A stretch of DNA of 64,000 nt from Escherichia phage FL15. The stretch lies in sequence record PP400778; one strand, written 5' to 3'. The notes below the pieces were generated by a model that saw only the letters and a program-made list of their open reading frames with translations, ran no database searches and was not told the origin of the DNA. A program made the position numbers and the translations under genes. Shown here one piece after another: positions 1 through 59,982 of this stretch (position 1 is its first letter; every line of letters starts with the position of its first letter).

Positions 1-160
1 AGGCTGTAGCCATCTTTTTAGTGGTCAGTAATGGGAAACCCTTGCTTAAATCAATTCGCATCTCTGCGCCGAATTTAGAGAGCGTACCTACCCCCGTGCG
101 GTCTTCACGAGGCCAGCCATTATCAAGAACATCACGCAACAGTTTCAAATATTCTTTCAT
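1..160 (-). CDS. td: thymidylate synthase, 5' part only (C-terminus lies beyond window start)
   Basis: Minus-strand ORF from ATG at 160 reads [51 protein letters not shown], the conserved ThyA N-terminus; runs off the window edge. Confidence 0.85.
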
Positions 161-488: not shown

Positions 489-1070
489 TTACGCCTTCTT
501 ACGTTCTAAAATTTGTTCGCTGATCAGGTAATCATCAAGGAAGTAATTATGTTCTTCTTTGGTTACAAAGTCAAAATATAATTCCTGAATCATTTCCTTA
601 GAGATACCAACATCATATTCAAATGGATCGTTGATTCCTGAACGTTGAACATACGTTAACACAATACGATCCGCAAAGTCAACCGCTTTTTCAATCAGGG
701 AAGGTCCGCCGATAACACTTACCAAACCTTGCAATTTCTCTATGACTTCTAATAATTCCTTCAATCCACCATCATTAGTAATCGCGGTATACACATCTGG
801 TTGGTCGCCGTTTTTTGCTTTCGGTGCTGGCTTACTGGTATCGGTGCTAACAACCACATTCACACGACCTTCCAGTGCTTTAGGGAGACTTTCAAAGGTA
901 TTACGTCCCATTACAACCGCCGCAAGTTCAACATCTCCCATAGTGCGCATTTTAAAGTTTTCCATGTCCTTTTTAATTGGACGCCCCCAGGGTAAACCGC
1001 CTTTAAAACCAAAAGCCCAATTTTCATCTGACATTTTAGTGTCACCAATAGCAAATACACATTGAATCAT
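489..1070 (-). CDS. frd: dihydrofolate reductase
   Basis: 193 aa; GGLPWGRP, VVMGRNTFESLP and VIGGPSL motifs typical of DHFR; T4 frd position next to td. Confidence 0.9.
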   Translation of the reverse strand: MIQCVFAIGDTKMSDENWAFGFKGGLPWGRPIKKDMENFKMRTMGDVELAAVVMGRNTFESLPKALEGRVNVVVSTDTSKPAPKAKNGDQPDVYTAITNDGGLKELLEVIEKLQGLVSVIGGPSLIEKAVDFADRIVLTYVQRSGINDPFEYDVGISKEMIQELYFDFVTKEEHNYFLDDYLISEQILERKKA

Positions 1071-2642: not shown

Positions 2643-2672
2643 ATTTTTATCCTCCGTTGTTTCGATGATTGT

Positions 2673-7321: not shown

Positions 7322-7373
7322 AACAAACACCTCACACAATAAATAATTTCATATTATAACAGGAGACCCAATA

Positions 7374-16809: not shown

Positions 16810-16813
16810 CAAC

Positions 16814-16832
16814 AAGGGGCTTTGCCCCCTTT
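16814..16832 (+). terminator. stem-loop after gene 37
   Basis: AAGGGGC-TTTG-CCCCCTT hairpin; weak U-run. Confidence 0.3.
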
Positions 16833-16844
16833 GGAGTATAAATT

Positions 16845-17627: not shown

Positions 17628-17690
17628 ATGTAATTATAAAAAGAATTAAGGAAACCTCCCACGGAAGGGAACTACTAAGGAGAAACGGCT

Positions 17691-30533: not shown

Positions 30534-30561
30534 ATTATAGAGAATCTCCCTTGTATGTCAA
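30534..30561 (-). promoter_or_regulatory. sigma70-type early promoter (TTGACA-16-TATAAT)
   Basis: Minus strand TTGACA (30556-30561) and TATAAT (30534-30539) with GGGAGA...TCTCCC inverted repeats around the -10. Confidence 0.5.
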
Positions 30562-31121
30562 CTAAAATTTAAAGATGCAAACTCCCCGTGATGAATTTTT
30601 GCATATTCATCATATGCTCTAGCGGCTTCCTCCTGAGTAGCAAACGATCCTATGTATTTTCTGTATCCGTTTATCCTTATTTGTGCTTGCCACGGTCTTT
30701 TGCTAGATCCTTTGCGATGAGTAACACCATTATATATGCTCGTGCACCCGTCCATTTTCTTTTTATTGTACATGTTTTGTTGTTGTGTTGCCTCCCGTAA
30801 ATTTGGTGGATTGTTGTTTTCTGGATTCCCGTCTATGTGGTCTATTACCTTAACCTGTGTTCCATATTCAAGAAACCAGACAATTCTATGTACAAGATAT
30901 GTAGATGTTCTCTTTTTAACCTTATTGTAAACATCTATTGCCAAATGACCGTAATTTAACTTTTTTGTTTTTACTTTATCACCGACTCGGTAGAAATATC
31001 CCTCTGGTAGACCATTAAAAGACGGACTATTTGTTTTGTGATATAGAACACCTTCCGTGTGTTCAAATCTGCGTTTTAATTCCTCTTGAATTTCAGTATT
31101 CCAAAATTTCGCACTTTTCAT
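30558..31121 (-). CDS. free-standing HNH homing endonuclease with AP2 domain (paralog of 6758-7321)
   Basis: 187 aa; LVHRIVWFLEYGTQVKVIDHIDGNPENNNPPNLREATQQQN and YNGVTH...WQAQIRINGYRKYIGSFATQEEAARAYD; begins 1 nt after the gp39 stop. Confidence 0.8.
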   Translation of the reverse strand: MKSAKFWNTEIQEELKRRFEHTEGVLYHKTNSPSFNGLPEGYFYRVGDKVKTKKLNYGHLAIDVYNKVKKRTSTYLVHRIVWFLEYGTQVKVIDHIDGNPENNNPPNLREATQQQNMYNKKKMDGCTSIYNGVTHRKGSSKRPWQAQIRINGYRKYIGSFATQEEAARAYDEYAKIHHGEFASLNFS

Positions 31122-37407: not shown

Positions 37408-37932
37408 TTAGTAGCCGCGTTCTTGACGGGCGAAGTTTTCAGCATTTTTCAGATAGTACAGAATAAAGAGTTCTTGAGCGTCAATACCCAGCGGGATCAT
37501 CTTTGACAGAATGAAGTGGATCGCGTCCACAAATTCAAATTTCACTTCAAGCTGATCTTCTGGTGACAGTTCAGAGAATTTACGCGCTCGCGCTTCCCCG
37601 TGGTTCTTTTTCCACATTTTCCAGATTGCACTTGCATCTTTACCATTGGACATTCCACCCAGCGATGTGTAAAGCTCTCGTGTTTCGTCTGCGATAGCGT
37701 CATCCATCCGTTGCATCCAATCCAGCATTTCACCGCAAGTCTCTAGCTTAGTTGGATTTGGGACCCAATCAAATTTTTCGGATAGTGCAACCTGCAAACC
37801 AGTTTGCATTTCTAGCATCACCTGAAACGGATCTTTACCTTCTGCAATCGCGTGATGATATGCGGCGATAGCCGCGTTAATATCTTTTTCGTTAACCAGA
37901 CCAGCACAAGAATTAAATTCTGACATATTCAC
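37408..37932 (-). CDS. 56: dCTP pyrophosphatase gp56 (MazG-like)
   Basis: 174 aa; matches T4 gp56 (KDP.QVML.MQ, KLET.G.M..WM, ASA.WKKWK, SPEDQLE.KFE.VD..HF.L, LYYLKN.ENFARQ.RGY). Confidence 0.9.
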   Translation of the reverse strand: MNMSEFNSCAGLVNEKDINAAIAAYHHAIAEGKDPFQVMLEMQTGLQVALSEKFDWVPNPTKLETCGEMLDWMQRMDDAIADETRELYTSLGGMSNGKDASAIWKMWKKNHGEARARKFSELSPEDQLEVKFEFVDAIHFILSKMIPLGIDAQELFILYYLKNAENFARQERGY

Positions 37933-39906: not shown

Positions 39907-40542
39907 TCAAGCGAACGTAGAAAGCAAATGTTTTGTTTCTTTCAGTTGTCGTTCAAGATCTTTGCGTTTCTCTTTAAGTTGCATTTTAGCATTATTTCGC
40001 TGTTTTTCAACATCTTTATCAATATGCTTAGTCCAATTATCAATATCAGAATAAGTTGGCATACCCAATTCTAGACCTAATGCGGTTGGATACAGGGTAA
40101 CAGTCCATAAACCGCTAATCTTCTTAAATAGGTCTGTGTGTAGTGTACTATCTACATCTTCCGGTGTCAACTCTTTTTCTTCTTTCAGTGGTGGGATCTC
40201 GTCATATGGTTCCAGTGCATTTACTTTAATATCAGATACCTCATCAAAGAATCCGCGTACATCCGCAGGAAATACACAAGCAATTTCCCAACCGTGATCA
40301 CGCAGAGAAGTAATATTTTTCACTCCCCCACCATGTGTGATGATTGATGTGACATTGCCATCAAGGTCCACCGAATTTACGAGAAATGGCTTATCGTCTG
40401 TCAGATCATTATAAAACTGTGCTTCGGCTGTAGTCATCTCCAGAAACAGATCTCGGATCGGACGACCATCCGGTGCGTTACCTTCCTTGAGAGTATAAAA
40501 GCGACTTACGATCCATTTTGGCGGTAAAGCATTAGCAATCAT
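39907..40542 (-). CDS. hypothetical protein
   Basis: 211-aa ORF between gene 41 and the small-ORF chain. Confidence 0.5.
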   Translation of the reverse strand: MIANALPPKWIVSRFYTLKEGNAPDGRPIRDLFLEMTTAEAQFYNDLTDDKPFLVNSVDLDGNVTSIITHGGGVKNITSLRDHGWEIACVFPADVRGFFDEVSDIKVNALEPYDEIPPLKEEKELTPEDVDSTLHTDLFKKISGLWTVTLYPTALGLELGMPTYSDIDNWTKHIDKDVEKQRNNAKMQLKEKRKDLERQLKETKHLLSTFA

Positions 40543-40592
40543 GTTATATCTCCTATCAAATCATTCACCAGCGCCCCGCAGGGCGCATTTTA

Positions 40593-42005
40593 TTAGAAAG
40601 TCATGTTATTTGCTAGCTCGTCGAGTTTTTCTCGTTTCTCGGCTTGCTGTGCGCTTTGTGGTTTAACTTGTGCGTTCTCCTGATCTGCGATCTGGTTTGG
40701 TACTTCATACCAACGCTGATTGCCTTTCTTCACACCAACGTTAAACCGTGAATAATAGTTCTTATCACCGTAACGAGACTTGATCTGCTTCATGAGTTGG
40801 ACGCCCATTTTAGCCAGGTCTTCGGTTTCGATAACACCCAACATAAAATCTGCTGTAGCCGGAAGACCTGCTGATTCAGCGGTATCACTCATGTTAAGGT
40901 CGGAAGCATCCCAACCAGCACGGGTAGTCTGTGCCGCAGTCCAACCAACAACATCCCACTTAACAAAAAAACCTCGCAGTTCTTCCGCAATCGCCTTAAC
41001 TAGTGTGTAACTATTTTCAGAGTATACACGCAAGCGAGACGATGCGCAAATCCCCAGATAGTCAACAATCACAACATCAGGTTTAAACTGTTTCTTGAGT
41101 CGCAATTCATTCATTAACGCCTCAAAGTGATTGGAGTTCGCGCCACCAGTCGGATACTGCTTGATCATCAATTTTCCAACCGGACGATCTCCGATCTTCT
41201 TATTCTTAACACGCTTCATACGTGCGGAATATTCCGCAAAAGAAACATTACCATTATCCAATTCATCTAATGTAATGTCAAGCAAGTTTGCGTCGATACG
41301 TTTGGCTACGACATGCTCTGCCATCTCCATTGAGATATACAATACATCATAACCACATTCCATATAATCCGCAGCAAGAGAACACAATCCAAGCGATTTA
41401 CCAACATTTACACCAGCAAGCAACACATTTAGCGTTTTTCTTTCCGCACCTCCTTTCGTGATTTTATTCAACATCGGCAGCTTAAACGGGATCTTATTCG
41501 CCTTAGTCTGATATAGCAAGAATCGTTTTTCAAAGTCATTAAACCAGTCATGACCTACATCAGAATCAAACGTAATGGATAGTGCTTCCTGCATGATCTC
41601 AGGAATAGCACCCTCACTCGGCAATTTCTTATTCTGTTTCTCTTTTGGTAGTTGTGCGTTCGCCTGAATCTCTAGCGCCCGTGACATTGCATTGTACATA
41701 GCACGGTCACGAATAAATTTTTCGGTTTCCTTCATTAACCAATCAAGGTCTTCCGGTGTATTCTCCAGCGAATCGAGAAGAGTTTTAGCCCCTTCATATG
41801 TTGTCTGATTGCCTCTCTCCTTGTCTAAAGCAATCTGTAATGCAGTTGGCGTAGGAATATTGGAATATTCGTCTACGTGCTTTTTAATCAGCTTATAAAT
41901 CAGTTTTTCTTCGTCTTCGGTGAAGTAGTCCGCTTTAAGGTGAGGCCATACATTCGTAAAGAATGCGCCATTGTAAATCAACTGTGAAAAGATAGTTTTA
42001 ATCAT
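40593..42005 (-). CDS. 41: replicative DNA helicase gp41 (DnaB-like)
   Basis: 470 aa; Walker A GVNVGKS, DnaB-type motifs, matches T4 gp41. Confidence 0.95.
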   Translation of the reverse strand: MIKTIFSQLIYNGAFFTNVWPHLKADYFTEDEEKLIYKLIKKHVDEYSNIPTPTALQIALDKERGNQTTYEGAKTLLDSLENTPEDLDWLMKETEKFIRDRAMYNAMSRALEIQANAQLPKEKQNKKLPSEGAIPEIMQEALSITFDSDVGHDWFNDFEKRFLLYQTKANKIPFKLPMLNKITKGGAERKTLNVLLAGVNVGKSLGLCSLAADYMECGYDVLYISMEMAEHVVAKRIDANLLDITLDELDNGNVSFAEYSARMKRVKNKKIGDRPVGKLMIKQYPTGGANSNHFEALMNELRLKKQFKPDVVIVDYLGICASSRLRVYSENSYTLVKAIAEELRGFFVKWDVVGWTAAQTTRAGWDASDLNMSDTAESAGLPATADFMLGVIETEDLAKMGVQLMKQIKSRYGDKNYYSRFNVGVKKGNQRWYEVPNQIADQENAQVKPQSAQQAEKREKLDELANNMTF

Positions 42006-42319
42006 ACATAGCCCCCAACTACACGCATAACAAAGGTCTTGAGTTTATACCAGAAAGTTTCTTTTTTCAACTTTTCTTCTGCTTCTTTGATCTGCGCGGT
42101 TAACGCCTTAATGACGTGTGGATATACCACATCACGATCTGACGGCGTGGAGTAGTCGACCACAATACCTTTAGTGTCTGGATCGTATTCAACATTATGA
42201 ATATAGACAATATGATGTTCTCCCTCTTCATCAACAATTATCAGTTCCTGGATAACTGTCTTCATTGCTTCTTGAATCAAGCTGTGTGCTTCTTCTAAAC
42301 TTGTTGGTTTCTTATCCAT
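42002..42319 (-). CDS. 40: hypothetical protein at the gp40 position
   Basis: 105-aa ORF between uvsX and 41, the position of T4 gene 40; call is positional only. Confidence 0.4.
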   Translation of the reverse strand: MDKKPTSLEEAHSLIQEAMKTVIQELIIVDEEGEHHIVYIHNVEYDPDTKGIVVDYSTPSDRDVVYPHVIKALTAQIKEAEEKLKKETFWYKLKTFVMRVVGGYV

Positions 42320-42341
42320 AATATAATCCTCTCTAGATATG

Positions 42342-42366
42342 AAAAAGGGGCATGTAGCCCCTTTAC
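42342..42366 (-). terminator. intrinsic terminator after uvsX
   Basis: Minus strand AAAGGGGC-TACAT-GCCCCTTT followed by TTCAT; plus strand has AAAAA upstream of the stem. Confidence 0.55.
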
Positions 42367-42374
42367 TACCATTG

Positions 42375-43445
42375 TTATGCTAACATATCTTCGATTTCTT
42401 TGTCAACTGCTTCGTCGCTGATCACTTGCCCCAGCTTATAATGATCGTTGATTGCTTCGTTAAACTTATCGTTTGTCAGAAGTGGTTTCCAGAACTCAAT
42501 GCTATTGGTTTCTTTAGCACGGAACTTGCGTTCTTCGGTTTCCATCTCTCCGGTCTCGGTATTTAGGATTGAACGGGAATACCAGCCGTTTGACGGTTTC
42601 ACCACCCAGCCTAACTCTACAGCCAATTCCAGCAAGCCGGAATAAGGATCGATGCCACCGCTAAATGTTACGCTAATCGGGAACTTCGATTTTTCTTTAA
42701 CGGTTCGTGATTTTTCCGCATTCAGGATAAAATCATAACCAGTAATTTCGGTTCCTTCTTTCTGCTGACGACGACCAATAATGAAAACTTCATTGGCTGA
42801 ATACATCGCGCCCGTACCGCCGGACATAACGGTCTTACTAAACATTTCTTGCGTTTCGTAAGTGTGGTTAATAGCGATGCACGGGATATCATTCATAGTC
42901 AGATACGGCGTAACCATACGGAACAAGCCTTTAAGTGCTTTCGCTCGCGTCATATCCTGTGCGGATTTCTCATTAATCGCGTCTTCAACTTCTTTTTTAC
43001 TTGCTAAGTTACCGATTGAGTCAATAAAGATGATCACTTTATCTTCACGGGTAATTTGCTCAAGCTGGTTCATGATTTCAAATTTAAATTCTTCGATGTT
43101 CTTGATTGGAACATGCACCACGCGATCAGGATCTACACCCATAGATTCAAGATAAGCGGGTGTAATACCGAACTCAGAATCAAAGAACAAACACGCCGCA
43201 TCAGGATTCTGTTTCATGTATGCACTAACACAAGTTAATCCCATGTTTGATTTAAAGTGCTTAGACGGACCAGCAAAGAAAATCAGACCAGATTGAAAGC
43301 CTTTTTTAAGATCACCTGAAAACGCAATATTCAGCATCGGGATCTTAGTGCGAGTATTTGTTTTTTCGTTAAAGAAGCTGGATTTAGACAGTACCGCAGT
43401 AGTTTTCAGGGTAGAGTTCTTTTTCAGTTTTTCCAGTACAGACAT
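42375..43445 (-). CDS. uvsX: UvsX recombinase (RecA-like)
   Basis: 356 aa; matches T4 UvsX (RTKIPM.NIA.SG, FFDSEFGITPAYL.SMGVDP.RV.H, FIDS.GNLASKKE.EDA, CIAINHTYETQEMFSKTVM.GGTG). Confidence 0.95.
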   Translation of the reverse strand: MSVLEKLKKNSTLKTTAVLSKSSFFNEKTNTRTKIPMLNIAFSGDLKKGFQSGLIFFAGPSKHFKSNMGLTCVSAYMKQNPDAACLFFDSEFGITPAYLESMGVDPDRVVHVPIKNIEEFKFEIMNQLEQITREDKVIIFIDSIGNLASKKEVEDAINEKSAQDMTRAKALKGLFRMVTPYLTMNDIPCIAINHTYETQEMFSKTVMSGGTGAMYSANEVFIIGRRQQKEGTEITGYDFILNAEKSRTVKEKSKFPISVTFSGGIDPYSGLLELAVELGWVVKPSNGWYSRSILNTETGEMETEERKFRAKETNSIEFWKPLLTNDKFNEAINDHYKLGQVISDEAVDKEIEDMLA

Positions 43446-43456
43446 TATTAATACCT

Positions 43457-43684
43457 CTATTCAGTTAATCCGTAATACTTTAATTGCTTCATTGTTATTC
43501 GATCTTTGTAGTGCTCTTGAATTAACTTTTTCATCGCATCAACATCGATCGTCACAAATACTTCGTTGCTGTGATTTCCGTGAACTTTCTTGAAATGCTC
43601 TATGCCTTCCTCACGTTCACGTTTAATCTTTTCAATTTCTCTCATAGTATATTTCTCACGTTGGCGGGTATCGTCACCCAACAC
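43457..43684 (-). CDS. hypothetical protein (occupies the T4 imm/42/beta-gt interval)
   Basis: 75-aa hydrophilic ORF; start uncertain; not similar to Imm, gp42 or beta-gt. Confidence 0.4.
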   Translation of the reverse strand: MLGDDTRQREKYTMREIEKIKREREEGIEHFKKVHGNHSNEVFVTIDVDAMKKLIQEHYKDRITMKQLKYYGLTE

Positions 43685-43706
43685 CCGCCATTATACACAC
43701 TTTATC

Positions 43707-46385
43707 TTAAATGTCAAACAGGTCTGTAAGAGATGCCACTTTTTCATATTGCAGCTTTGCAGCCGTGGTAATGTTCTCCAGTGGTTTGACGAAAGTCTTA
43801 TTAAACAACAAAGGCCAGTCTAACCACTTTAACACCTTTGATTCAATTTCTGGAGGAATACGAGTACCGGACAACCAACCAAAACAGATTTCTCCAAACG
43901 GATTTCGATCTTTCAGCGGTACAATCATAACCTTCTCGCCTTCACGAATCGGATCTAGTCCGAATTTTCGAGCATTACGATTATAACACAATACACTCTT
44001 AACCGCATACGGACAACCCTTAATCGGATACCCGTTTGAATCGCTGTATTTCTGTAGGTTGTTTGCAGATGATACCGCAGCAACATCAAGATAGTCAAGT
44101 TTTCTAAATTCTTGCTCAAAAATACCGTAGTATTCCTGCAACGACTCTTCACCTTCCTGCAACATACGGCGAATACATTCTTTCAGTGATTTCTGACATG
44201 CTTTAGGGGTGGAGCTACGTTGCGTTTCCAAGCCCATGATTTTTAGCTTAGGTTCAGCAAAGCGCGTTCCTTCCATATCCCAAACATTAAGAGCATAACG
44301 CTTTTTACCAGTCCAGAATCCACCGATACCCGCAGATTTCAATGGAGGACCAGCAATTGCCTCACGGTCCATAAACATCAAGTGCTCATAGTTGTTCATG
44401 TACTCGCATAACTCGCGATATCCCTTGTCGATAATAGGTTCCATTCGATGTTTACCGAAATTATCAAGGAAGTCAACAAGTTTTTCGGTATCGTCGAAAC
44501 GGTCTTCCCCGCCAACCTTATCAACAACATTGTTAACCAGCACATAAACGGAGTCAGTATCACAATAACGAACATATGCAAAATCGGTTGTTCCACAAAG
44601 CTCGTTTAAGTATTCATTAATCTTACGCTCAATCCACTGAATTGCAAGCTGACCAAACAAGGTGATCGCACTAGCGTTACGGAGATCATAAAAACGGAAT
44701 TTAGGATTCCCCAACGCACCATAAAGGGAGTTGATCAAAACTTTACGAGAAAGCTGGTTTGTATTGCACAAGATCGACTCGTCTTTACATTCTTCCAGCA
44801 ATTTCTCTAAGGCATCTTTACTTAATTCAGAAAGCATCGATTTAAACGCTTCATCAAAGTCGTGACGCACTTCAACGCTATAGTTAATGGTTCCTCCATA
44901 AACATGATTTTCATCGTGTAGAATCGCTTTACAGAGTTCAGCATTGCGATCACATGCCAACATCATGTTTTTGTACTGCTTACGCTGATCGAATACCTTT
45001 TTAATCTCAATCGGTACGATACCGTGAATATCTTTTCTATACATCCATCCGTTAGGCGAGCAAGAATACTCATCACTCGGACGTGGTGCAGTTTTATTGA
45101 TATACTCGTGCATCGGTGCAGCATCAAAAGATCCAGCGATTGTTTCAGGCGAAATATTAACCTGTCGAATAATAGATGGGTACAGACTTGTTAAGTCAAA
45201 GCTCATCATCCAACGGTAAGCATTCGGCACAGGTTCTTTTACGAATGCGCCTGGATACGTCTGCTTAGGCTGTATCTTATTTTCCGGTACTACTTTACCC
45301 TCAGCTTTCAGAGATCCGAAGATAATAGCATCCCACACTTTCATCGGGTTATAAACATGGTTAAATTTAATCTTTGCATAGAAACATAGACTATACACCA
45401 GATCGATAAATCCACGCTTTTTATCAATCGCCAGAACACGATCAACGTCGCCGATGTTATAATCGATGTAAAGTTGATGGTTGTCATCACGCAATTTCTT
45501 TAACGGACCATCATAATCAACCTTACCGATTCCTGTCTCATATTCAGCAACATAATCTAATGCATATGTTGGTTGAGTCGTAAAGCTAAATTTCTTGTAC
45601 AGGTCAATATAATCAAGGCTTTCGATCCCCATGATCGTAAATGCTTCACGCTCGTTGCCAAAATCATCCTGTGAGATTCGGGATTTAATCTTACCGCACG
45701 GGCTTAGACGGTTAGCGGTTCTACTTCCGAACTTATTACTGATACGTTTAATGATATATGGAATATCGAATGTTTCTGTGTTCCAGCCAGTGAAACCAAC
45801 GGGTCGGTTTTCCTCAAAGAATCGGATGTATTCTAACAGCAATTCATCTTCTGTGTCATAGACGTTATAAACAACGCGCTCTACAATATCAGGTCGAAGA
45901 ATAGACTTGCTAGATTCCCAGATTTCACAGTTTTTTCCTTTCAAATCAAATACAAAGAAACGATCATGTACGGAATCATAATGCGTAATTGCATCGATAG
46001 GATATTTCGCTTCTTCTGGTTTAGGAAATTCTGGGGCAGTGACCTCGATATCAACCCATGCTACACGGATTTTATTTCGGTCATATCGAATCTCGCCTTT
46101 ATACGTATCAGACAGATAGGAGATGATAAAATCATCCATCCCTAGCGCCTCTTGCCCCATTTCTCCCATCTTTTTACGCCATTTGTTGGCCTCGTTCATA
46201 GAGGGGAATTTTTTAGCAATGCAAGGCTTGCCATAGATATCTTTATAATTCGTAACCATACCAGGCGCGGCATGATGAAATAAAGTTGGCGTATATTCAA
46301 CGTAACGCTCTTGTTCTTGTCCAGCATCATCAATATAACGCTCGTAGATCTTATCACCTACTCGCTCACATGACAGAAAATACAT
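43707..46385 (-). CDS. 43: DNA polymerase gp43 (family B)
   Basis: Start MYFLSCERVGDKIYERYID (AAGGAG SD); exo and pol motifs (FD.E, YNI.DV, SLYPSII, DTDS, KKRYA) match T4 gp43. Confidence 0.95.
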   Translation of the reverse strand: MYFLSCERVGDKIYERYIDDAGQEQERYVEYTPTLFHHAAPGMVTNYKDIYGKPCIAKKFPSMNEANKWRKKMGEMGQEALGMDDFIISYLSDTYKGEIRYDRNKIRVAWVDIEVTAPEFPKPEEAKYPIDAITHYDSVHDRFFVFDLKGKNCEIWESSKSILRPDIVERVVYNVYDTEDELLLEYIRFFEENRPVGFTGWNTETFDIPYIIKRISNKFGSRTANRLSPCGKIKSRISQDDFGNEREAFTIMGIESLDYIDLYKKFSFTTQPTYALDYVAEYETGIGKVDYDGPLKKLRDDNHQLYIDYNIGDVDRVLAIDKKRGFIDLVYSLCFYAKIKFNHVYNPMKVWDAIIFGSLKAEGKVVPENKIQPKQTYPGAFVKEPVPNAYRWMMSFDLTSLYPSIIRQVNISPETIAGSFDAAPMHEYINKTAPRPSDEYSCSPNGWMYRKDIHGIVPIEIKKVFDQRKQYKNMMLACDRNAELCKAILHDENHVYGGTINYSVEVRHDFDEAFKSMLSELSKDALEKLLEECKDESILCNTNQLSRKVLINSLYGALGNPKFRFYDLRNASAITLFGQLAIQWIERKINEYLNELCGTTDFAYVRYCDTDSVYVLVNNVVDKVGGEDRFDDTEKLVDFLDNFGKHRMEPIIDKGYRELCEYMNNYEHLMFMDREAIAGPPLKSAGIGGFWTGKKRYALNVWDMEGTRFAEPKLKIMGLETQRSSTPKACQKSLKECIRRMLQEGEESLQEYYGIFEQEFRKLDYLDVAAVSSANNLQKYSDSNGYPIKGCPYAVKSVLCYNRNARKFGLDPIREGEKVMIVPLKDRNPFGEICFGWLSGTRIPPEIESKVLKWLDWPLLFNKTFVKPLENITTAAKLQYEKVASLTDLFDI

Positions 46386-46417
46386 AATATAAACTCCTTC
46401 ACTTACGAAAGACACTC

Positions 46418-46446
46418 ATTATAGGGGAATCGACTTAGTTTGTCAA
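46418..46446 (-). promoter_or_regulatory. sigma70-type promoter upstream of gene 43
   Basis: Minus strand TTGACA (46441-46446), 17-nt spacer, TATAAT (46418-46423). Confidence 0.55.
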
Positions 46447-46467
46447 TACCCCTATCCCATCAGTATC

Positions 46468-46830
46468 TTATCGCCCGATCTGATATTTCTCGATCAGCGT
46501 CCACTCTTCTTTCTGTTTGAAAGACAATACACGGAAATTATTAACTTCGGTAGTTTCAAAATCACTATCAATCAGGGTACACAGATTCCACTGCGCCAGA
46601 AGTTTTGCAATGTTATTACGGCGTAATTCATCTTCCCACGTCATTTTAACACTACGACCATCTAATTTCAACAACTCCTTGAAATGAACGATGTAATAGC
46701 GCCCTTTCTTCTGGAGAATATGACAAGACTGATACAGCGTCTTGTCTCGATTGTTGGCAATGCCGCAGCGGGTTAAAGTTTCCTTAATTTTAAGGAAGTT
46801 TTCAGGACTAATCAAATTAATTTCAATCAT
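46468..46830 (-). CDS. regA: translational repressor RegA
   Basis: 120 aa; MIEINLISPENFLKIKETLTRCGIANNRDKTLYQSCHILQKKGRYYIVHFKE matches T4 RegA almost residue for residue. Confidence 0.95.
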   Translation of the reverse strand: MIEINLISPENFLKIKETLTRCGIANNRDKTLYQSCHILQKKGRYYIVHFKELLKLDGRSVKMTWEDELRRNNIAKLLAQWNLCTLIDSDFETTEVNNFRVLSFKQKEEWTLIEKYQIGR

Positions 46831-46831
46831 T

Positions 46832-47410
46832 TTACCACCTTTCTATAATCTTTTTAAGTCGTTTCCTTTCTGTCTGATTCTTAGTAACACCCGCCAAAAG
46901 TTCATCGGTCGCATACGGTTTAATGTGCTTCAATAACTTGTCCATATATCCCTTTTCATTAGCCAAATCGAGATAAAACCGGGCGTCATCCATATTTACA
47001 CAATATGCTTTCGCCACTGCCATTAAAACCAATTTTTGGTCCAATTCTTCTGTTAGTTTAGCCCATTTACCGTATCGTTTCCCCTTAGAAATACTCTGTA
47101 AGAGATAATCAAAATGCATTTGATCTGGGAGGCCATGACCGATTAAATTCATCACATACGCGCTATATAGGCAATCTGCGTGCTGGGAAAGAGCGGTGTT
47201 AATCCATCTCTGGTTATATGCAGAATTGTTTCCCACATTAACGCGCTGTTTATCTAAGGTGATATGATCCATCAGAGCAAATAATGCATTGTCGGTTTTC
47301 TCGGTGAATGTATCCGCTAATTCAGACACCTTTTCCCAATCACGAGAGCGCCATGCAATTTCATGCTCGTTTAATTGTGTATCATCTTCACCGAAAAATT
47401 GACCTAACAT
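46832..47410 (-). CDS. 62: clamp-loader small subunit gp62
   Basis: 192 aa; matches T4 gp62 (QLNEH..AW.S.DW, Y.MNLIG.GL, KGKRYGKWAKL, QLKK). Confidence 0.9.
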   Translation of the reverse strand: MLGQFFGEDDTQLNEHEIAWRSRDWEKVSELADTFTEKTDNALFALMDHITLDKQRVNVGNNSAYNQRWINTALSQHADCLYSAYVMNLIGHGLPDQMHFDYLLQSISKGKRYGKWAKLTEELDQKLVLMAVAKAYCVNMDDARFYLDLANEKGYMDKLLKHIKPYATDELLAGVTKNQTERKRLKKIIERW

Positions 47411-48384
47411 TATACGAACTCCAATTCAACCATTAATTGCATTAACAAAAAGACAATGTGAATCTCTTTATCAGCCGCGTGTGCAAACATCTGATTATTT
47501 TCACCGATAATCTCAGTGAGACGAATAATAGAAGCTGGCTTAACTTGAGTATACAACTCATTATAAAGTTTCTTGACAAATTGAGCGTATGTATTGGTAT
47601 ATCGCGGCGCAAGTTTACGCACATTAGCAAACTGTTTAGTTTTAAGTGCTTCCACCACATCGGTTACTTCGGTATTGCTACTTTCGATAACCATGCTCAA
47701 TACGCCAGCATCAATTTTACCATGTTTAGCGTAGCGGTCCAAAAGTTTCATTACGCGTCGGAAGTCTGGGAAGTTCTGTTTAACCAGTTCCGCTAATACG
47801 CGCATTTCTTCTACTGGCACACCTTCTTTATCAAGAATTGCTTTACACCGGACGATCATTTCTTTCATCATGCGAAGCTGATCATCTTTAGTCGGAGATC
47901 CAAACGTTATGGGGTCAAATCGAGATCGTAACGCTGGGATAATACCTTCTAGATCGTTTGCTGTGATAATGAATGTCACATTGTTTGAGTATGCCTCAGA
48001 GAAACTACGCAAGTGTCTTTGAGCGTCAGCCAACCCCGCTCGGTCATACTCATCGATAATAACAACTTTGCCTTTTTCTCTTTTTTCTTCATCGAGTGAT
48101 ACACTCTGCGCAAAGCGTGTAATCTCATCGCGGATAAAATCAATCTTACAATCTGCGCCGTTAACAAACAGATAATCAACACCCACATCTTCGCAAAGCG
48201 CCTTAGCAACGGTTGTTTTACCAGTACCCGGCGATGGGCTATGCAGGATCATAGAAGGGATTCGGCCTTGCTTAACAATCTGCGCGAAGATCTTTTTATC
48301 TGCTTCCGGCAGAATACATTCAGAAATTGATTTCGGACGGTATTTCTGTTCCCACTGAAACTCATTTTCATTAACACTCAGCAT
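47410..48384 (-). CDS. 44: clamp-loader large subunit gp44 (AAA+)
   Basis: Start MLSVNEN with GAGGTG SD; Walker A SPGTGKTT, DEYD, SRFD; overlaps gp62 start (ATGA). Confidence 0.95.
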   Translation of the reverse strand: MLSVNENEFQWEQKYRPKSISECILPEADKKIFAQIVKQGRIPSMILHSPSPGTGKTTVAKALCEDVGVDYLFVNGADCKIDFIRDEITRFAQSVSLDEEKREKGKVVIIDEYDRAGLADAQRHLRSFSEAYSNNVTFIITANDLEGIIPALRSRFDPITFGSPTKDDQLRMMKEMIVRCKAILDKEGVPVEEMRVLAELVKQNFPDFRRVMKLLDRYAKHGKIDAGVLSMVIESSNTEVTDVVEALKTKQFANVRKLAPRYTNTYAQFVKKLYNELYTQVKPASIIRLTEIIGENNQMFAHAADKEIHIVFLLMQLMVELEFV

Positions 48385-53265: not shown

Positions 53266-54291
53266 CTAACTTTTTGCGCTATTTACCTCGGCTAAAAGTT
53301 CATCAGAAATACGCTTGACCGCCGCAAGTTCTTCCGGTTCTAGGTTTTGTTCTTCCAGATATTCATATACCATCTGAATAGTGCTTTTAACTTCAATAAC
53401 ACCTGTTTCCTGTGATGCGCTACTCTCCAGTTTATGGACCACTTTTAGCTTGTGTACAACGGCCTCTAACGCGCTTTCTAACTTAGTTAACCCATTATCA
53501 GCAACCGTTGCAATAAGACGCACACTAAGCCCCTTAAAGCGTTCTACATCGATTTTATCATCTGACGGGTAAGTGATACGCACATGATAAGTTTTGTCAT
53601 TCTGGATAAACTCTTTTTTGTGTGTATCGGTATCGAATACCCAAAACCCACGCGGATCGTTTTCGTCACCCGCCGTTAGTGTGTATGGTGTACCGATATA
53701 CGTTACATTACCGCCATCGCTGATAGTATGAAAATGACCGGAAAACACTTCACGGTATTTCTTGAGGAAGTCCGCGCTATAACCTTCGGATTTTAGCCCT
53801 TTATAGAAATAGTAACCGGACAATTCCCAATGGCCTACACAATATTCGCTGAATGAGTTTTGAATAAACTCTAAAATCTCTGATTTATTGTCATCACAAA
53901 ACCACGGGAACAGATCAAATGATACACCATCAAAGGTAACTGTTTCCGGTTTATCGATAACCTTAATGCAATCATACTGGCTTAACACTTCACGCGGTGC
54001 GTTAGGCTGGATCTTGTTTCGTTTAAACATATCATGATTCCCGACCGTGATATAACAAGTAATTCCAGCCTCTTCCAGTAATGGGATGACCTTAGTACGG
54101 TTAAATTTCATGGTTTCATGGGTAATTGCTTTTCGGCAATCAAACCAATCCCCTGTTTGAATCCATGTCTTAATATTATGCTCTTTGGAGTATTCAACCG
54201 CTTTCTTGATGGTATCAAGAATATACTCATGCACCCACGGATCATCGCCACCGATACCAGTATGCAGATCACCTAAAAGCAAAATTTTCAT
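53266..54291 (-). CDS. 47: recombination nuclease subunit gp47 (Mre11/SbcD-like)
   Basis: 341 aa; phosphoesterase motifs (GDLH, GDWFD, GNHD, GHWE, GHFH) in Mre11 order. Confidence 0.95.
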   Translation of the reverse strand: MKILLLGDLHTGIGGDDPWVHEYILDTIKKAVEYSKEHNIKTWIQTGDWFDCRKAITHETMKFNRTKVIPLLEEAGITCYITVGNHDMFKRNKIQPNAPREVLSQYDCIKVIDKPETVTFDGVSFDLFPWFCDDNKSEILEFIQNSFSEYCVGHWELSGYYFYKGLKSEGYSADFLKKYREVFSGHFHTISDGGNVTYIGTPYTLTAGDENDPRGFWVFDTDTHKKEFIQNDKTYHVRITYPSDDKIDVERFKGLSVRLIATVADNGLTKLESALEAVVHKLKVVHKLESSASQETGVIEVKSTIQMVYEYLEEQNLEPEELAAVKRISDELLAEVNSAKS

Positions 54292-54381: not shown

Positions 54382-54669
54382 TTACAGCATACTTAATACC
54401 GTTTGCCGTGTACTAATCCACATAGCAGAAAGCAGTTCTGGTGTGTGTGGCTGTTTGTAGATATCACGTAATTTTCCGATAGCGTAGATATACGCATCAC
54501 GATTATCATCGATGATAGCTTGTTCAGCCCACCGCTTAAGGCGTGCAATCTCTCGCGAGTTCTTACGCAAGATCTTTTCCGCTTTCTTAGCGGCTTTAGC
54601 CTCTAGTTCTGCTTGTACTTTGTCTACTTCATTCACTGCAATCTGGTCATGCTGTTCATCGTAAGTCAT
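54382..54669 (-). CDS. hypothetical protein
   Basis: 95-aa ORF. Confidence 0.45.
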   Translation of the reverse strand: MTYDEQHDQIAVNEVDKVQAELEAKAAKKAEKILRKNSREIARLKRWAEQAIIDDNRDAYIYAIGKLRDIYKQPHTPELLSAMWISTRQTVLSML

Positions 54670-54670: not shown

Positions 54671-54904
54671 TTATTTTCCTTCTGGGATATAGTCGATGAT
54701 TAAAGAAAATTCATCTTCTGATACATTATAGCTATGTGAGATTGTACCCGTAAAGACCTCAAGATCCGGTGATTTGATATTGCACGGATCGATAATCACC
54801 GGAACGCCGCAATCTCTCAAAAATAATTTGGCGAAATACGGCACGAGGTCAGTTTCAAACTCTGCTTCTTCCAGCAAACGGGAAATGTTAATTTTCAATC
54901 TCAT
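54671..54904 (-). CDS. hypothetical protein
   Basis: 77-aa ORF directly downstream of gene 55. Confidence 0.45.
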
Positions 54905-55421
54905 AAAATTGGTCCAGGCTAGGCAATTCCTCGGTCAATACATCTTCAACCTTTGGCGCTTTCGGTTTATTGACCGATTCCTCGTAGTTGTTGATTTTAT
55001 CGTAAATGTCCTGTATGAATGCCTCATCAGCAATCTGGCACATATCAGCGTCGCGTTCGTCATATACATGATGCACAAAATATTTGTATTTTGCGGCTGT
55101 CGCTGTTCTCTCTTTTTTAATGCGCTGTACAAAAGCATTAAAGCACGCTTGCGTGATGTAAGCATGAGGATTTTTATACTTTGTCTCGTCAAAATTAATC
55201 AAACCCTTGACCGCCGCTTCGATTCCGTCGTCGATCATTTCTTCGCGCCATGTTTGACTATAACCAGAAAAGTTAAAACGACGTGATAGATTTTTAGAGA
55301 TTTGCATAATTGCTAGGCCGATTTGATCGCTCATTGGAACTTGCCGACCTTGTGCTGCAATTTGTTGTTTCCAACGGCAAATTTCTTCGTAAAGCTCTTT
55401 ATTGTTTACATAATCAGACAC
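54888..55421 (-). CDS. 55: late-transcription sigma factor gp55
   Basis: 177 aa; [66 protein letters not shown] match T4 gp55; GTG start with GAGGGTG SD. Confidence 0.95.
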
Positions 55422-55461: not shown

Positions 55462-56931
55462 CTATTCCCCATTACCATTATACTTTCTTTGCTTAGTTAT
55501 CCACACTCTAACCATCTCTACAGATTCACCGTCAGACGGATCAAGAGTTTTTCCTTTTTTCTTCATGCGGTACTTAAATCCGTTAAATCTTGCATTCTCT
55601 TGCTCGTTAAAGTCGAACATCTTTTTAAATGATTTTCGCCCTTTACGCTCACCACATTCTAGCGGAATCATTCGGTCTGTTATTACATTGGCATTAGGTA
55701 GAAACGTTTTTAGATAATCCACCAACGCCCAATCAGGAACATATAGATTAACATTCTCCTTGCTCTCGTTGTCTCTCAGGTTACAACGCAAACATAATTG
55801 AAATGCTGGTTCCAGATAATCAGACACATGACGCGCTTTCAAAAACTCGTTTGTCGGGAGATCACAACTATTAGCAAGACCTTTTAAAATATCAATCTCC
55901 CATCGTTGAGGGTTAAAGCTGAACATCACAGCAACATTTTTATGATGAATGTAAGAGTTAAGACCATAAGATCCGTAAGGTATCCGCTCACCAATACCAT
56001 TTGTACACGCTTCACGGTCCCGATTCACGGTATAAATGAAGTCATCGCCACATTCATTTTTAACCATATCAACAAGACGTTCAAAGGTATTGTTTGTTTC
56101 TGACTGGTGACGCGACCATCGTTCAGAGTCCGTCATAAGGATGATATTAACTCTATCTGTATTTTTATACTCTTTGAAATATAGTCTGGATTCTAGCGCA
56201 CTCGGAACAAAATCGCAATTTGCATAGTATCGTAGATACTTCCCACTATATGTATCAAAGAGATTTGCACATGCTATCGTAACCTTTTTAAAGTCTCCCC
56301 ACGTACCGTGTTTGTTATCGTTCAAGAAAACAATTTTCGACCCATTCTTCCGGTGTCCTTCGTTATGTTTTACCATAACGTTGATTTTCTTCTCTAATAA
56401 CGCCTCATAAAGCCCTCTAAGAGAAGAATCGATCATATCAGTACCATCCTTTGCACTTTCTATCTTTTCTTTGATAGCGGCCTTCTCAGAGTCTTTTAGA
56501 ACTAAGTTCTGTAGGCATTCCGATTCGTCGGCGATTGGTTCGCAATGCTTCGTGATAAGTTCAAGATTAGACTTAAACGGATACTCATTAAATTCAACCA
56601 GTTGAGGAACTTCATCAATGTAAAGAGCATATTCACCAAAAATTTTTGAACGTTCCATATTAGATAACGCTGTATGTGTAATGAATATCACATCAGCACC
56701 GTCTTTAACTGATTGCATTATCGACGCTTGCACTGTCTTAAGGCTTCTTAGTCGTGTGCTATCAATCAAGACAGCACGACCACCCATTCTTTTAAACTTA
56801 TTGTAAGATTGTTCACTTAAAACACGAGATGGCGAAGCAATAACCGCTTTTTCTTTTGTCTCTAGGACGTGGGAAAGTATAGCATCAGTTTTCCCCGCCG
56901 CTGGCAATGCGATTAATGTTTCAATCTTCAT
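55462..56931 (-). CDS. P-loop NTPase of unknown function (489 aa)
   Basis: N-terminal Walker A-like LPAAGKT and Walker B-like ALYIDEV; large Cys/Trp/Tyr-rich C-terminal region without recognisable motifs; sits where T4 has alpha-gt. Confidence 0.6.
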   Translation of the reverse strand: MKIETLIALPAAGKTDAILSHVLETKEKAVIASPSRVLSEQSYNKFKRMGGRAVLIDSTRLRSLKTVQASIMQSVKDGADVIFITHTALSNMERSKIFGEYALYIDEVPQLVEFNEYPFKSNLELITKHCEPIADESECLQNLVLKDSEKAAIKEKIESAKDGTDMIDSSLRGLYEALLEKKINVMVKHNEGHRKNGSKIVFLNDNKHGTWGDFKKVTIACANLFDTYSGKYLRYYANCDFVPSALESRLYFKEYKNTDRVNIILMTDSERWSRHQSETNNTFERLVDMVKNECGDDFIYTVNRDREACTNGIGERIPYGSYGLNSYIHHKNVAVMFSFNPQRWEIDILKGLANSCDLPTNEFLKARHVSDYLEPAFQLCLRCNLRDNESKENVNLYVPDWALVDYLKTFLPNANVITDRMIPLECGERKGRKSFKKMFDFNEQENARFNGFKYRMKKKGKTLDPSDGESVEMVRVWITKQRKYNGNGE

Positions 56932-57399: not shown

Positions 57400-57657
57400 A
57401 ATCGCCCTCAGTTCTTTATAGCCTCCAATGTGCTCGTTGTCAATGAATATCTGGGGGTATACAAACCGGAGGCTCTTTGAGTTTAGCCTCCCCGCCAGTT
57501 CTTCAATCATATCACGGTCGGGAATAATGTCAACCCCGACCTGCTTGAATACTGGTTTAAGTGTATACGGAATACCCAGATCATCCAGTAGCTTCATTGC
57601 ACTAATACAACCATAACAATGATAAGCCTCTTTCGGTATACCGTATATCTCGATCAT
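57388..57657 (-). CDS. nrdH: NrdH-like glutaredoxin
   Basis: 89 aa; thioredoxin-fold pattern with CYGC redox motif near the N-terminus; T4 nrdH position. Confidence 0.8.
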   Translation of the reverse strand: MIEIYGIPKEAYHCYGCISAMKLLDDLGIPYTLKPVFKQVGVDIIPDRDMIEELAGRLNSKSLRFVYPQIFIDNEHIGGYKELRAIYDY

Positions 57658-58138
57658 TTCTCAGCCTTTAATCTTTCTAGTTCTTCTTCCAGTTCCTTAA
57701 TGCGCTTCTCGCGTTCAATATCACGTTGGATCTTAGTGGCGAATACTCGTTTAAACTGATTATAGTCATCAATTTTAAATACTTCCTCTTCACCGTATCG
57801 ACGTACAGAAACTTCGTAGTTGTTGAAAAATTGTTCCAACATTGCATCAGTGGTCAGTTCTGCCGATACCACTTTAAAATGACGTTCTTCTGATTGCAAA
57901 AACCAGTTGTGCGCGTATTCCCGTACATCATCAACATTGCGGCAGGTGTATACCGTGCCATCAATTTCAATCGCAGAAACATAATCAACATCCGATGCAT
58001 GGTGATCAAATGCGATAACTTTAAATGGACGGTCGCCTATAAACTCTGCTATTGCATCATTTACAACGCTAAAGTTTGCAAAATCTTCTCTCGTTTTCTT
58101 ATCTTTCCACTGATAGGTCACGCCAGCAACAAACATAT
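57654..58138 (-). CDS. member of tandem paralog family (WxD N-domain + coiled-coil tail)
   Basis: Start MFVAGVTYQWKDKK (GAGGA SD); N-domain aligns with neighbours (TYxW+D ... DRPF ... IEIDG ... +FF.EV); Glu/Lys-rich C-terminus. Confidence 0.6.
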
Positions 58139-58962
58139 TACCATCCTCGCTCTTTACCAATCAAAAATTCAACTTCACGACGTTTAATGTCTTCTTGAAG
58201 GTCTTTAATCTTCTGTCGGTCTTGCATGATTTCATCCATCTTGTCAAGTGCCGCAATGAAATCATCGAAACGTTCAAAGGTTTTACCTTCATTTGCTTCG
58301 CCAAATTTAACCATTGTCAGGCCGTAACGACTACTAAACAGACGTTTCAACTGTCCAACGATTTTAGAATCAGTGGTTATAACTTCCAATTCTTCTACTT
58401 CACGAAAGAATTTTCTATCAGAATCAATAAACCAGCTAGTTCCTTTATGGTCTCTATCTTCGGTTGCGCTCATTAGAGTATGGTCTTTACCATCAATTTC
58501 AATTACATCAATTTGCCCACATGGACTAACATTTTTAACAGTAAAAGGTCTATAATTTATTGCTCGTGCAATAACATAATTAAGGTTAGATACGTTTTCA
58601 GCATAATGACAGAAGTCGGTCATAGCATTCGCATCTTTCCAAGTATAAGTTTTACCAACTTCCCATTTCTGGGGAACTTCTTCAACTTCACGAAAGAATT
58701 TTCTATCGAATGGACTAAAGAAATATGTTGCAGTCCAAATGTCTTTTCCTGTAGCAGTTTTCGCCGTATGATAAACACCGTCTAGCTCTATTGCATCAAT
58801 CCAACCGTTACTCTCGATCTCGATGATGGTAAATGGCTTGTCACCAATAGCTGCACTGATATCGCTGTTAAGTGGAGAAAGAACACCTTCTCCGTTAGTA
58901 ATAAACTCAGTTTTAGCGTTTTCATCTCTCCAAGTGTAAGTTTTACCAATTTCCCATTTCAT
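58138..58962 (-). CDS. member of tandem paralog family carrying two N-domain copies
   Basis: 274 aa; MKWEIGKTYTWRD...DRKFFREVEE repeated as KWEVGKTYTWKD...DRKFFREVEE, then a helical tail. Confidence 0.65.
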   Translation of the reverse strand: MKWEIGKTYTWRDENAKTEFITNGEGVLSPLNSDISAAIGDKPFTIIEIESNGWIDAIELDGVYHTAKTATGKDIWTATYFFSPFDRKFFREVEEVPQKWEVGKTYTWKDANAMTDFCHYAENVSNLNYVIARAINYRPFTVKNVSPCGQIDVIEIDGKDHTLMSATEDRDHKGTSWFIDSDRKFFREVEELEVITTDSKIVGQLKRLFSSRYGLTMVKFGEANEGKTFERFDDFIAALDKMDEIMQDRQKIKDLQEDIKRREVEFLIGKERGW

Positions 58963-59444: not shown

Positions 59445-59972
59445 TCATCTCTCATTTTTGATACGTGATTCTAATTGGATCATACGGTCGCGCGTTTGTT
59501 TGTATTCTCGGATAGCACCGATCCGGCTAGGCATACCATCCAGTACGCTCTTAATACCTTCTAGGGTAGTAATTTTGGCAATGCTATTATGTAACCCCAT
59601 CTTATCGATCAACTGAATGTCGTAGGCTTCCATAAGCAGACCCAGGCGTTCTAAAGTTAGGTCTTCTTCTTTTTCTTCCGAATCTGGAATCTTAGGTTCA
59701 ATAGCAACTTCGGTAAAGAAACGACGCTCACCCGACCAAAACCACACACCGGAACAGCCAATAGGGGATTCTTTTAACGTCATAGAGTCGAAATTACTAC
59801 CAATAATAGTAATTTCTCTAACATCACCATCATCGTCAAGGTCTTCTACCCTAAACGGGCGACCAGCCAACAAGTCAACAATACATCTGTTAATAGACGA
59901 CGAAAATTTAGTAAGTTCGGCTTTCGACGCTTCGCATTCAATCTTGTAAGTTTTACCAACTTCCCATTCCAT
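59445..59972 (-). CDS. member of tandem paralog family
   Basis: Start MEWEVGKTYK with GAGGTG SD; same N-domain and helical C-terminal tail. Confidence 0.65.
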   Translation of the reverse strand: MEWEVGKTYKIECEASKAELTKFSSSINRCIVDLLAGRPFRVEDLDDDGDVREITIIGSNFDSMTLKESPIGCSGVWFWSGERRFFTEVAIEPKIPDSEEKEEDLTLERLGLLMEAYDIQLIDKMGLHNSIAKITTLEGIKSVLDGMPSRIGAIREYKQTRDRMIQLESRIKNER

Positions 59973-59982
59973 AATAATCACC

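Follow-up and report, generated by a model that had tools for sequence, protein, structure and literature searches.

Gene 56 without gene 42 in a Krischvirus genome that very probably contains ordinary cytosine

Does a T4-type phage that carries gene 56 and has no gene 42 at its usual place keep its hydroxymethylcytosine (hmC) genes elsewhere in the genome, or does it do without them? The question arises at the uvsX-gene 43 locus of Escherichia phage FL15, of which a stretch of 64,000 nucleotides (record PP400778; termed the window) was analyzed. In T4 the genes uvsX and 43 are separated by segA, b-gt, 42, imm, and imm.1. A sequence-only reading of the window had found a single 75-aa ORF at this position, no a-gt between genes 47 and 55, and a homolog of the dCTPase gp56, which it regarded as existing to exclude dC. 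It left open whether the modification genes are located elsewhere or a different cytosine strategy is used.

The interval 43446-43706 was found to be the exact gap between the start codon of uvsX (43445) and the stop codon of gene 43 (43707), both encoded on the minus strand. The RecA-like recombinase gene uvsX (42375..43445) corresponds to RB49p024; its product is 63% identical to T4 UvsX and matches Pfam T4_UVSX_C (4.7e-35) and RecA. Gene 43 (43707..46385), the start of which was placed by analogy with RB49p026, encodes a DNA polymerase with the Pfam domains DNA_pol_B and DNA_pol_B_exo1 and 55% identity to T4 gp43 (903 aa). The gap contains, on the minus strand, an early promoter, a stem-loop, a short leader, and one small ORF. 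The reported absence of b-gt, 42, and imm from this interval was confirmed, and tblastn found none of them in the window. Since what was observed is a lack of genes, the question of chance does not arise.

There is indeed only one ORF in the gap, but its length of 75 aa did not hold up. The mechanical 75-aa version starts with a GTG at 43684, inside the hairpin described below, and the 62-aa ORF from the ATG at 43645 (43457..43645, minus strand) is likely to be the gene. This charged ORFan, the sole gene between uvsX and gene 43, is equivalent to RB49p025. It matched phrog_12120, which has no assigned function, over its full length (1.7e-41), and gave no match in the Pfam scan. The ORFan was found at an identity of at least 95% in 58 Krischvirus-type records, and relatives that are 45-50% identical are present in unrelated enterobacterial phages of ~48 kb. 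The same gene order was found in 58 related genomes, and the uvsX-ORFan-43 arrangement is identical in phages SAP and TB34.

The early promoter (43690..43717, minus strand) matches the sigma-70 consensus TTGACA-16-TATAAT at 12 of 12 positions. It overlaps the end of gene 43, with the -35 box located within the last codons, and in RB49 a hypothetical early promoter is annotated at the corresponding position. Directly downstream of the -10 box is a 12-bp stem-loop (GGCGGGUGUUGG...; 43662..43690, minus strand). Folding of the 86 nt from 43640 to 43725 gave a minimum free energy of -25.9 kcal/mol, with z = -3.6 relative to shuffled sequences. Promoter-early stem-loop (PeSL) cassettes are known from RB49 and phi1, where modular shuffling has been attributed to them, and the gene 43 locus is plastic in several T4-type phages (Arbiol et al., 2010; PMC2839356). 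These cassettes combine a strong consensus sigma-70 promoter with a G/C-rich stem-loop, are intergenic, and lie directly upstream of a small ORFan. A strong sigma-70-like promoter with an adjacent stable stem-loop was found beside the ORFan at 43717-43662, and the predicted hairpin corresponds to the stem-loop component of such a cassette. The arrangement differs in that the -35 box is in the coding sequence of gene 43 and not in an AT-rich spacer. The gap between uvsX and gene 43 is probably a hyperplastic spot that holds a cassette of promoter, stem-loop, and ORFan.

The a-gt locus of T4, with 47.1, a-gt, mobB, and a-gt.2 to a-gt.5 between genes 47 and 55, is similarly reduced. Its left border, gene 47 for the SbcD-like nuclease subunit (53266..54291, minus strand; from the ORF list, equivalent to RB49p039), is followed on the same strand by homologs of a-gt.4 (54382..54669; tblastn with T4 a-gt.4, 44% identity, E 9.5e-13) and a-gt.5 (54671..54904; tblastn with T4 a-gt.5, 32% identity, E 5.8e-8). 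The right border is the late sigma factor gene 55 (54888..55421, minus strand), the product of which is 61% identical to T4 gp55. Only these two homologs were found between genes 47 and 55; a-gt was not, in agreement with the sequence-only reading.

To place the phage, window positions 40000-48000 were compared with a phage collection in a nucleotide search. The search returned 65 phage records, of which 58 span at least 80% of the stretch, and identity over this region was 99.5% for FL38, 99.4% for kaaroe, and 98.5% for RB49. The whole window aligned with FL38 at ~97% identity over 58 of 64 kb, with gaps at the tail-fibre adhesin region, the CapR-like gene, and two endonuclease insertions. 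For the first 25 kb of the window the best matches in the phage collection were 94-97% identical with a coverage of 80-91%. The G+C content of the phage DNA is about 40.5-40.6%. Judged by its high identity to and collinearity with RB49 and the rest of the genus, the window is Krischvirus DNA, i.e., from an RB49-type "pseudo-T-even" coliphage and T4 relative.

The window shows 64 kb of a genome of about 164 kb, and it is a mosaic. Gene 42 and the glucosyltransferase genes could accordingly have been relocated to a part of the genome outside it. We used 26 T4 proteins in tblastn (E <= 10) against the window and the complete FL38 genome (163,833 bp). No credible match was found in either for gp42, b-gt, a-gt, imm, imm.1, alc, denB, ndd, or arn, and for the glucosyltransferases no match was better than E 0.2. 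The one exception was T4 gp42 against FL38 89760-90125 (E 0.006, 23% identity), a site inside the thymidylate synthase gene td. Since a paralog that is only 23% identical was detected, the search would have picked up a true gp42 ortholog.

The possibility that td is a disguised gene 42 was considered and rejected. The ThyA-like protein of FL38 matched Pfam thymidylate synthase at 1e-84 and the NCBIfam equivalog TIGR03284 with 283 bits (cutoff 108). It has the catalytic Cys, and carries the Asn typical of thymidylate synthases where gp42 has the dCMP-specifying Asp179. It also contains an odd insertion of ~140 aa. The first 53 codons of td are at the edge of the window (2..160, minus strand), where the gene runs off, and their translation is identical to the N-terminus of FL38 Td. 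The genome-wide search for ThyA-like proteins and glycosyltransferases that had been proposed as a check thus returned, on the complete relative FL38, only a genuine thymidylate synthase.

Pfam and PHROG scans were further made of 20 unannotated window ORFs of at least 110 aa and of 20 FL38 ORFs outside the window. None of the 40 ORFs belonged to the ThyA-like, glycosyltransferase, or TET/dioxygenase families. A non-orthologous pathway based on TET, glycosyltransferase, or C5-methyltransferase enzymes was rejected on these scans, whose only finds were methyltransferases, among them a weak C5-like protein encoded outside the window.

Of the T4-type hmC system, gp56 was thus found in the window and FL38, while gp42, the glucosyltransferases, and alc/denB were not. 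This agrees with the restriction of gene 42, denB, and alc to certain lineages of T4 relatives (Petrov et al., 2010; PMC2993671 Table 4), and with surveys in which the hmC genes are absent throughout the genus (PMC12115623 Table 4; PMC13390438). The absence of alc and denB from FL38 and the window is likewise in agreement with PMC12115623 (Table 4), and a further survey (PMC8056088) agrees with the absence of the hmC genes. Relocation is contradicted by the complete FL38 genome, which has no gp42, a-gt, b-gt, or imm, and by the genus-wide surveys, including that of Petrov et al. (PMC2993671). It is also contradicted by the absence of alc and denB, the constant companions of gene 42, and by a strong avoidance of restriction sites inside the window, which is not a trait of hmC phages. 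We consider the probability of relocation practically negligible, and infer from the relatives that the rest of this phage's genome lacks hmC genes as well.

The reported gp56 homolog proved to be real. It is encoded within the ORF 37408-37932, where the alignment suggests that translation starts at the ATG at 37926 (37408..37926, minus strand; 172 aa). Aligned end to end with T4 gp56, the protein shows 49% identity (E 2e-60), and it matched phrog_173 (5e-37). It scores 24.8 bits for PF08761 (dUTPase_2), above the curated gathering threshold of 22.9; this is the family of all-alpha (dimeric) dUTPases/dCTPases, which are NTP pyrophosphohydrolases. The acidic motifs E83-T-R-E86 (ExxE) and E133-F-V-D136 (ExxD) align with EFRE and ELVD of T4 gp56; they are candidates for the catalytic metal-binding motifs of MazG and dimeric dUTPases. 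A sequence search for a solved structure of gp56 found none. Full-length homologs were found in 1423 phage records, 39 of them at an amino-acid identity of at least 95%. The 49% identity of gp56 to T4 is in the same range as that of denA (49%), dam (47%), cd (56%), and frd (about 35%). This level of divergence, the shared motifs, and the 1423 records argue for a maintained function of gp56.

The gene could instead be a functionless, decaying relic of an ancestor with hmC in its DNA, as gene 42 and its partners are gone and, in T4, gene 56 becomes dispensable once C-DNA is tolerated (PMC12115623). A decaying gene is not what was found: the reading frame is uninterrupted over its full length, it is conserved at 95% amino-acid identity or more in those 39 records, both motifs are kept, and it has diverged from T4 no more than the other auxiliary enzymes. 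Moreover, almost every T4 relative carries gene 56, be it with or without gene 42, and these include other lineages that lack gene 42 (PMC2993671 Table 4). A relic is thus very unlikely.

We favor retention of gp56 for nucleotide metabolism. T4 gp56 is a dUTPase/dUDPase as well as a dCTPase/dCDPase, and its products feed both gp42 and Cd (PMC2993671 Table 4). Judged by the 49% identity to this characterized enzyme, the Krischvirus gp56 would be a dUTPase/dCTPase as well. The view that gp56 exists to exclude dC, and the paradox that follows from it, does not stand, since the T4 enzyme also supplies dCMP and dUMP for dTMP synthesis and gene 56 is kept without gene 42 (PMC2993671). The gene set of the lineage was found to comprise 56, cd, td, frd, gp1 dNMP kinase, tk, nrdAB, denA, and dam. 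Of these, tblastn against the window and FL38 identified 56, cd, frd, denA, and dam, and Pfam matches identified Cd, DHFR, and dNMP kinase. The dihydrofolate reductase gene frd of the dTMP branch is located at 489..1070 (minus strand; tblastn with T4 Frd, about 36% identity, E 1.2e-24), and its FL38 ortholog matches Pfam DHFR_1.

In this lineage gp56 would convert dCTP/dCDP and dUTP/dUDP to dCMP and dUMP and would keep dUTP out of the DNA. In the absence of gp42 the route would run from dCTP/dCDP to dCMP (gp56), on to dUMP (Cd), dTMP (Td with Frd), and dTDP (gp1), and finally to dTTP. By tblastn and Pfam the genes for the route from dCTP to dTDP are complete in the lineage. It would shift the roughly 1:1 supply of C and T from the host towards T, which would fit a genome with 40.5% G+C. 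gp56 would have been retained because its role is independent of hmC. A point that counts against this explanation is that a strong dCTPase would have to be reconciled with the dCTP that the phage itself requires.

The state of cytosine is reflected in the restriction sites. We compared observed and expected (O/E) oligomer counts under a maximal-order Markov model, with non-palindromic hexamers as control. Of 54 C/G-containing 6-bp palindromes, 21 were wholly absent from FL38, including TCCGGA, GAATTC, AAGCTT, GGATCC, and CCGCGG with expected counts of 66, 45, 37, 34, and 27, respectively. None of the 3804 non-palindromic hexamers with an expectation of at least 10 was absent. The median O/E was 0.43 for C/G-containing palindromes compared to 1.00 for non-palindromes (Mann-Whitney p 2e-20), and O/E was 0.37 for CCWGG and 0.44 for GGCC. 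From the window alone, 13 of 52 such palindromes with C or G were missing, and the summed count was 434 observed vs. 751 expected (p 6e-23). Palindromes made up of A and T only were mostly undepleted, with the exception of TATATA (O/E 0.34 in FL38). The T4 control (77 kb in two segments) lacked no palindrome and had a median O/E of 0.97.

Restriction-site avoidance was thus found in both the window and FL38. It is in agreement with a survey in which T4-like coliphages without the hydroxymethylase avoid 55.8% of E. coli restriction sites, compared to 2.4% for those with the enzyme (Rusinov et al., 2018; PMC6286503). Chemical and enzymatic observations on relatives point in the same direction: HpaII and NheI cut RB49 DNA, which has served as an unmodified control (PMC4041780), and the DNA of Krischvirus TB34 is canonical by HPLC/MS (PMC13390438). 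Judged from the oligomer counts, the palindrome depletion is the signature of unmodified DNA that has long been exposed to Type II restriction. With neither dCMP hydroxymethylase nor DNA glucosyltransferases, and no discrimination against C-DNA by alc, denB, ndd, and arn, the lineage would make no hydroxymethylcytosine. Its virion DNA would contain ordinary cytosine, and Type II restriction would be escaped by the genome-wide removal of recognition sites. The supposition of a different cytosine strategy was hence right in its plainest sense, unmodified cytosine and avoidance of restriction sites. A separate point against this explanation is that denA is kept: its product EndoII attacks C-DNA in T4, and the phage's own DNA must be spared (PMC8056088).

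Site avoidance may not be the only protection. FL38 encodes a Dam-family enzyme (TIGR00571, 149 bits), a second amino-methyltransferase of 279 aa (phrog_3820), and a 238-aa protein with the C5-methyltransferase-like motifs FDGSG, PPC, and ENP (phrog_757). GATC is undepleted in FL38 (O/E 1.06), and a "DNA-cytosine methyltransferase" is listed for this group of phages (PMC8056088). Phage-encoded methyltransferases such as Dam would probably add some protection. That site-specific methylation by the three proteins forms a significant part of it, as a complement and not a competitor to site avoidance, is possible but doubtful. All three genes are outside the window, and the C5-like protein is short and reaches only 15.8 bits in Pfam, below the threshold of 22 bits; a sequence search for a solved structure of it found none. 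In addition, TB34 DNA has no detectable modified nucleoside (PMC13390438), and RB49 DNA is cut by HpaII.

One report is at odds with ordinary cytosine in the genus. In 2026 the Krischvirus SAP was reported to contain 5-hmdC and alpha-gentiobiosyl-hmdC (alpha-gentiobiosyl-mdC) and to be cleaved by BrxU, with no pathway genes found (PMC13390438). The report counts against our main explanation and is a potentially important loose end. Taken at face value it would mean that Krischvirus makes hypermodified cytosine by a cryptic, non-ThyA pathway of which gp56 is the sole recognizable piece, and the many Krischvirus ORFs without an assigned function could be invoked for it. However, TB34, which is 99.96% identical to SAP, is unmodified, and seven Tequatrovirus phages of the collection that includes SAP have the same base profile (PMC13390438). 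Over the 8-kb region from gene 41 to gene 44 (corresponding to window positions 40000-48000) we found SAP and TB34 to differ only by two 1-nt indels in homopolymers. As these frameshift the essential genes uvsX and 43 in the TB34 record, they are sequencing errors. The cutting of RB49 DNA by enzymes sensitive to cytosine modification (PMC4041780) and the long-term site avoidance of the lineage, absent in T4, also speak against a cryptic pathway.

The identity of the SAP and Tequatrovirus profiles suggests a mixed or swapped DNA sample. Together with the SAP/TB34 comparison, which covered 8 kb, and the site avoidance, we infer that a sample mix-up is more likely than a cryptic pathway, which we find highly improbable. 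The evidence argues that the hmC-type bases of SAP are not a property of the lineage. The broader proposition, that some Krischvirus phages replace cytosine with hmC-type bases without a ThyA-like gp42 or known DNA glucosyltransferases and with gp56 as the only recognizable component, appears extremely unlikely. If it were true, the unannotated ORFs of the window would include unrecognized biosynthetic genes.

Altogether, these observations make it very probable that the window is from a Krischvirus without the hmC system, which has ordinary cytosine, avoids restriction sites, and keeps gp56 for nucleotide metabolism. All of this has precedents. The lack of hmC genes, the retention of gene 56, and the restriction-sensitive C-DNA of RB49-type phages became known in the late 1990s and 2000s, the distribution of the hmC genes was described in 2010 (Petrov; PMC2993671), and the avoidance of restriction sites was published in 2018 (Rusinov; PMC6286503). 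T4 relatives with C-DNA are generalized transducers and therefore relevant to the safety of phage therapy (PMC12115623), and they are handy unmodified controls for CRISPR and restriction studies.

Compared to the hmC system of T4 (gp56, gp42, gp1, alpha-gt, beta-gt, alc, denA, and denB), the lineage has homologs of gp56, denA, cd, td, frd, and gp1 and a collinear backbone of replication genes. It differs in having no gp42, neither glucosyltransferase, and no imm, alc, denB, ndd, or arn, and in having unmodified DNA. T4 shows no avoidance of 6-bp palindromes, whereas that of the window phage is extreme. In this it resembles the non-modified lytic phages of Rusinov et al. (2018), in which orthodox Type II palindromic sites are depleted or absent and the hmC relatives of which show no such depletion. 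The published trend was reproduced on the window and FL38 with nothing substantively different.

The RB43/RB16-type (Pseudotevenvirus) coliphages are likewise T4 relatives that keep 56 and denA and have no 42, denB, or alc (PMC12115623 Table 4; PMC2993671), and they are generalized transducers with C-DNA. They differ from the window phage in belonging to another genus and in keeping ndd, and gp56 of presumed RB43-like phages is only about 51-54% identical to that of the window.

The closest resemblance is to RB49 and the other Krischvirus phages (phi1, JSE, FL38, kaaroe, and TB34), which are 95-99.5% identical to the window at the nucleotide level. They share with it the gene orders 56-61-...-41-40-uvsX-ORFan-43-regA-62-44-45 and 47-a-gt.4-a-gt.5-55. 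They also share the lack of the 42/gt/alc/denB/ndd set and the retention of 56, denA, cd, and td. Relative to RB49, the window lacks the HNH-AP2 endonuclease gene adjacent to gene 47 and has two additional ones, and it differs from the group as a new mosaic, in which the tail-fibre adhesin region and the CapR-like gene are divergent.

The gap between uvsX and gene 43 contains a single gene, the 62-aa ORFan, and a promoter of its own. On the minus strand at 43662-43717 a sigma-70 promoter with a perfect consensus match (12/12) extends over the end of gene 43, and a 12-bp stem-loop comes after it. Together they form a cassette of the PeSL type (promoter-early stem-loop, from RB49/phi1), which drives the ORFan and uvsX.

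The same region was compared between the Krischvirus phages SAP and TB34, of which SAP was reported to carry hmC-type bases and TB34 canonical DNA. Over the 8 kb corresponding to 40010-48000 of the window, their only differences were homopolymer indels (T6/T5 and C6/C5). Because both uvsX and gene 43 are split by these indels in the TB34 record, the differences point to sequencing errors and not to biology.

The gp56 homolog (37408-37926, minus strand) was compared with phage records and falls into two allele classes among Krischvirus-type genomes, with 39 records at 95% or higher amino acid identity and 20 records at 60-80%. KFS-EC differs from the window in gp56 (69% identity) while its uvsX-43 ORFan is 98% identical. 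Taken together, these sequence comparisons suggest that gene 56 undergoes allelic exchange.

Four proteins relevant to DNA modification are encoded by the relative FL38, all outside the window. One is a 238-aa C5-cytosine-methyltransferase-like protein (L004:19480-20196, minus strand) with the motifs FDGSG, PPC and ENP, which matches phrog_757 and falls below the Pfam threshold. Its gene adjoins that of a 171-aa GmrSD_N/DUF262 protein (L004:18634-19149, minus strand). The others are a second amino-methyltransferase within the baseplate gene cluster (L003:28034-28873, plus strand) and a Dam-family enzyme (L006:6499-7311, minus strand). Thymidylate synthase (td) is encoded on the minus strand at L004:39598-40830 in FL38, and only the first 53 codons of the gene lie within the window (2-160, minus strand). 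The Krischvirus enzyme is 410 aa long; an insertion of about 140 aa interrupts the TS fold midway, and the match to the Pfam profile breaks in two at position ~110.

Several parts of the window differ from FL38. The CapR-homology/treble-clef zinc-finger gene is a single 460-aa ORF in FL38, whereas the window has two overlapping ORFs (1463-1975 and 1878-2687, minus strand). Allelic divergence, a frameshift or an error in sequencing could account for this; positions 1786-2643 lack an alignment to FL38, with just 87.5% identity in the flanks. Free-standing HNH_3 + AP2-domain endonuclease genes are found upstream of gene 34 (6758-7339, minus strand) and directly upstream of gene 39 (30558-31121, minus strand). 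FL38 has none at either site, while in RB49 a copy that the window lacks lies between gene 47 and a-gt.4. The two window genes resemble mobile homing-endonuclease genes. There is no alignment to FL38 either for the region of the distal tail fibre and gp38 adhesin (14155-17637, plus strand; gp38-like ORF at 16845-17627), a typical host-range mosaic.

Among the remaining minus-strand ORFs are three distantly goF-like phrog_5347 paralogs (57654-58160, 58138-58962 and 59445-59981) clustered between gene 55 and nrdG; FL38 encodes a related 392-aa goF-like protein just past the window-equivalent end. A 489-aa DEAD-box-like helicase ORF lies directly downstream of gene 55 (55462-56931), a CYTH-domain protein is encoded between dsbA and rnh (5009-5605), and a 252-aa protein has an LprI (lysozyme inhibitor) domain (20917-21675). 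T4 MotA and AsiA had no match in the FL38 genome (tblastn, E <= 10), in line with RB49-type phages not being known to use T4-style middle-mode transcription.

Avoidance of 6-bp palindromes containing C/G was extreme and bimodal, with 13 of 52 absent from the window and 21 of 54 from the FL38 genome (L003-L006), and with other palindromes, NheI, XbaI and BclI sites among them, at expectation. Observed/expected counts under a Markov model were 0.37-0.48 for CCWGG in the window and FL38. T4 has no palindrome avoidance or CCWGG depletion of this kind, and is strongly depleted for GATC (0.33), whereas GATC is undepleted in the window and FL38 (1.02-1.06).
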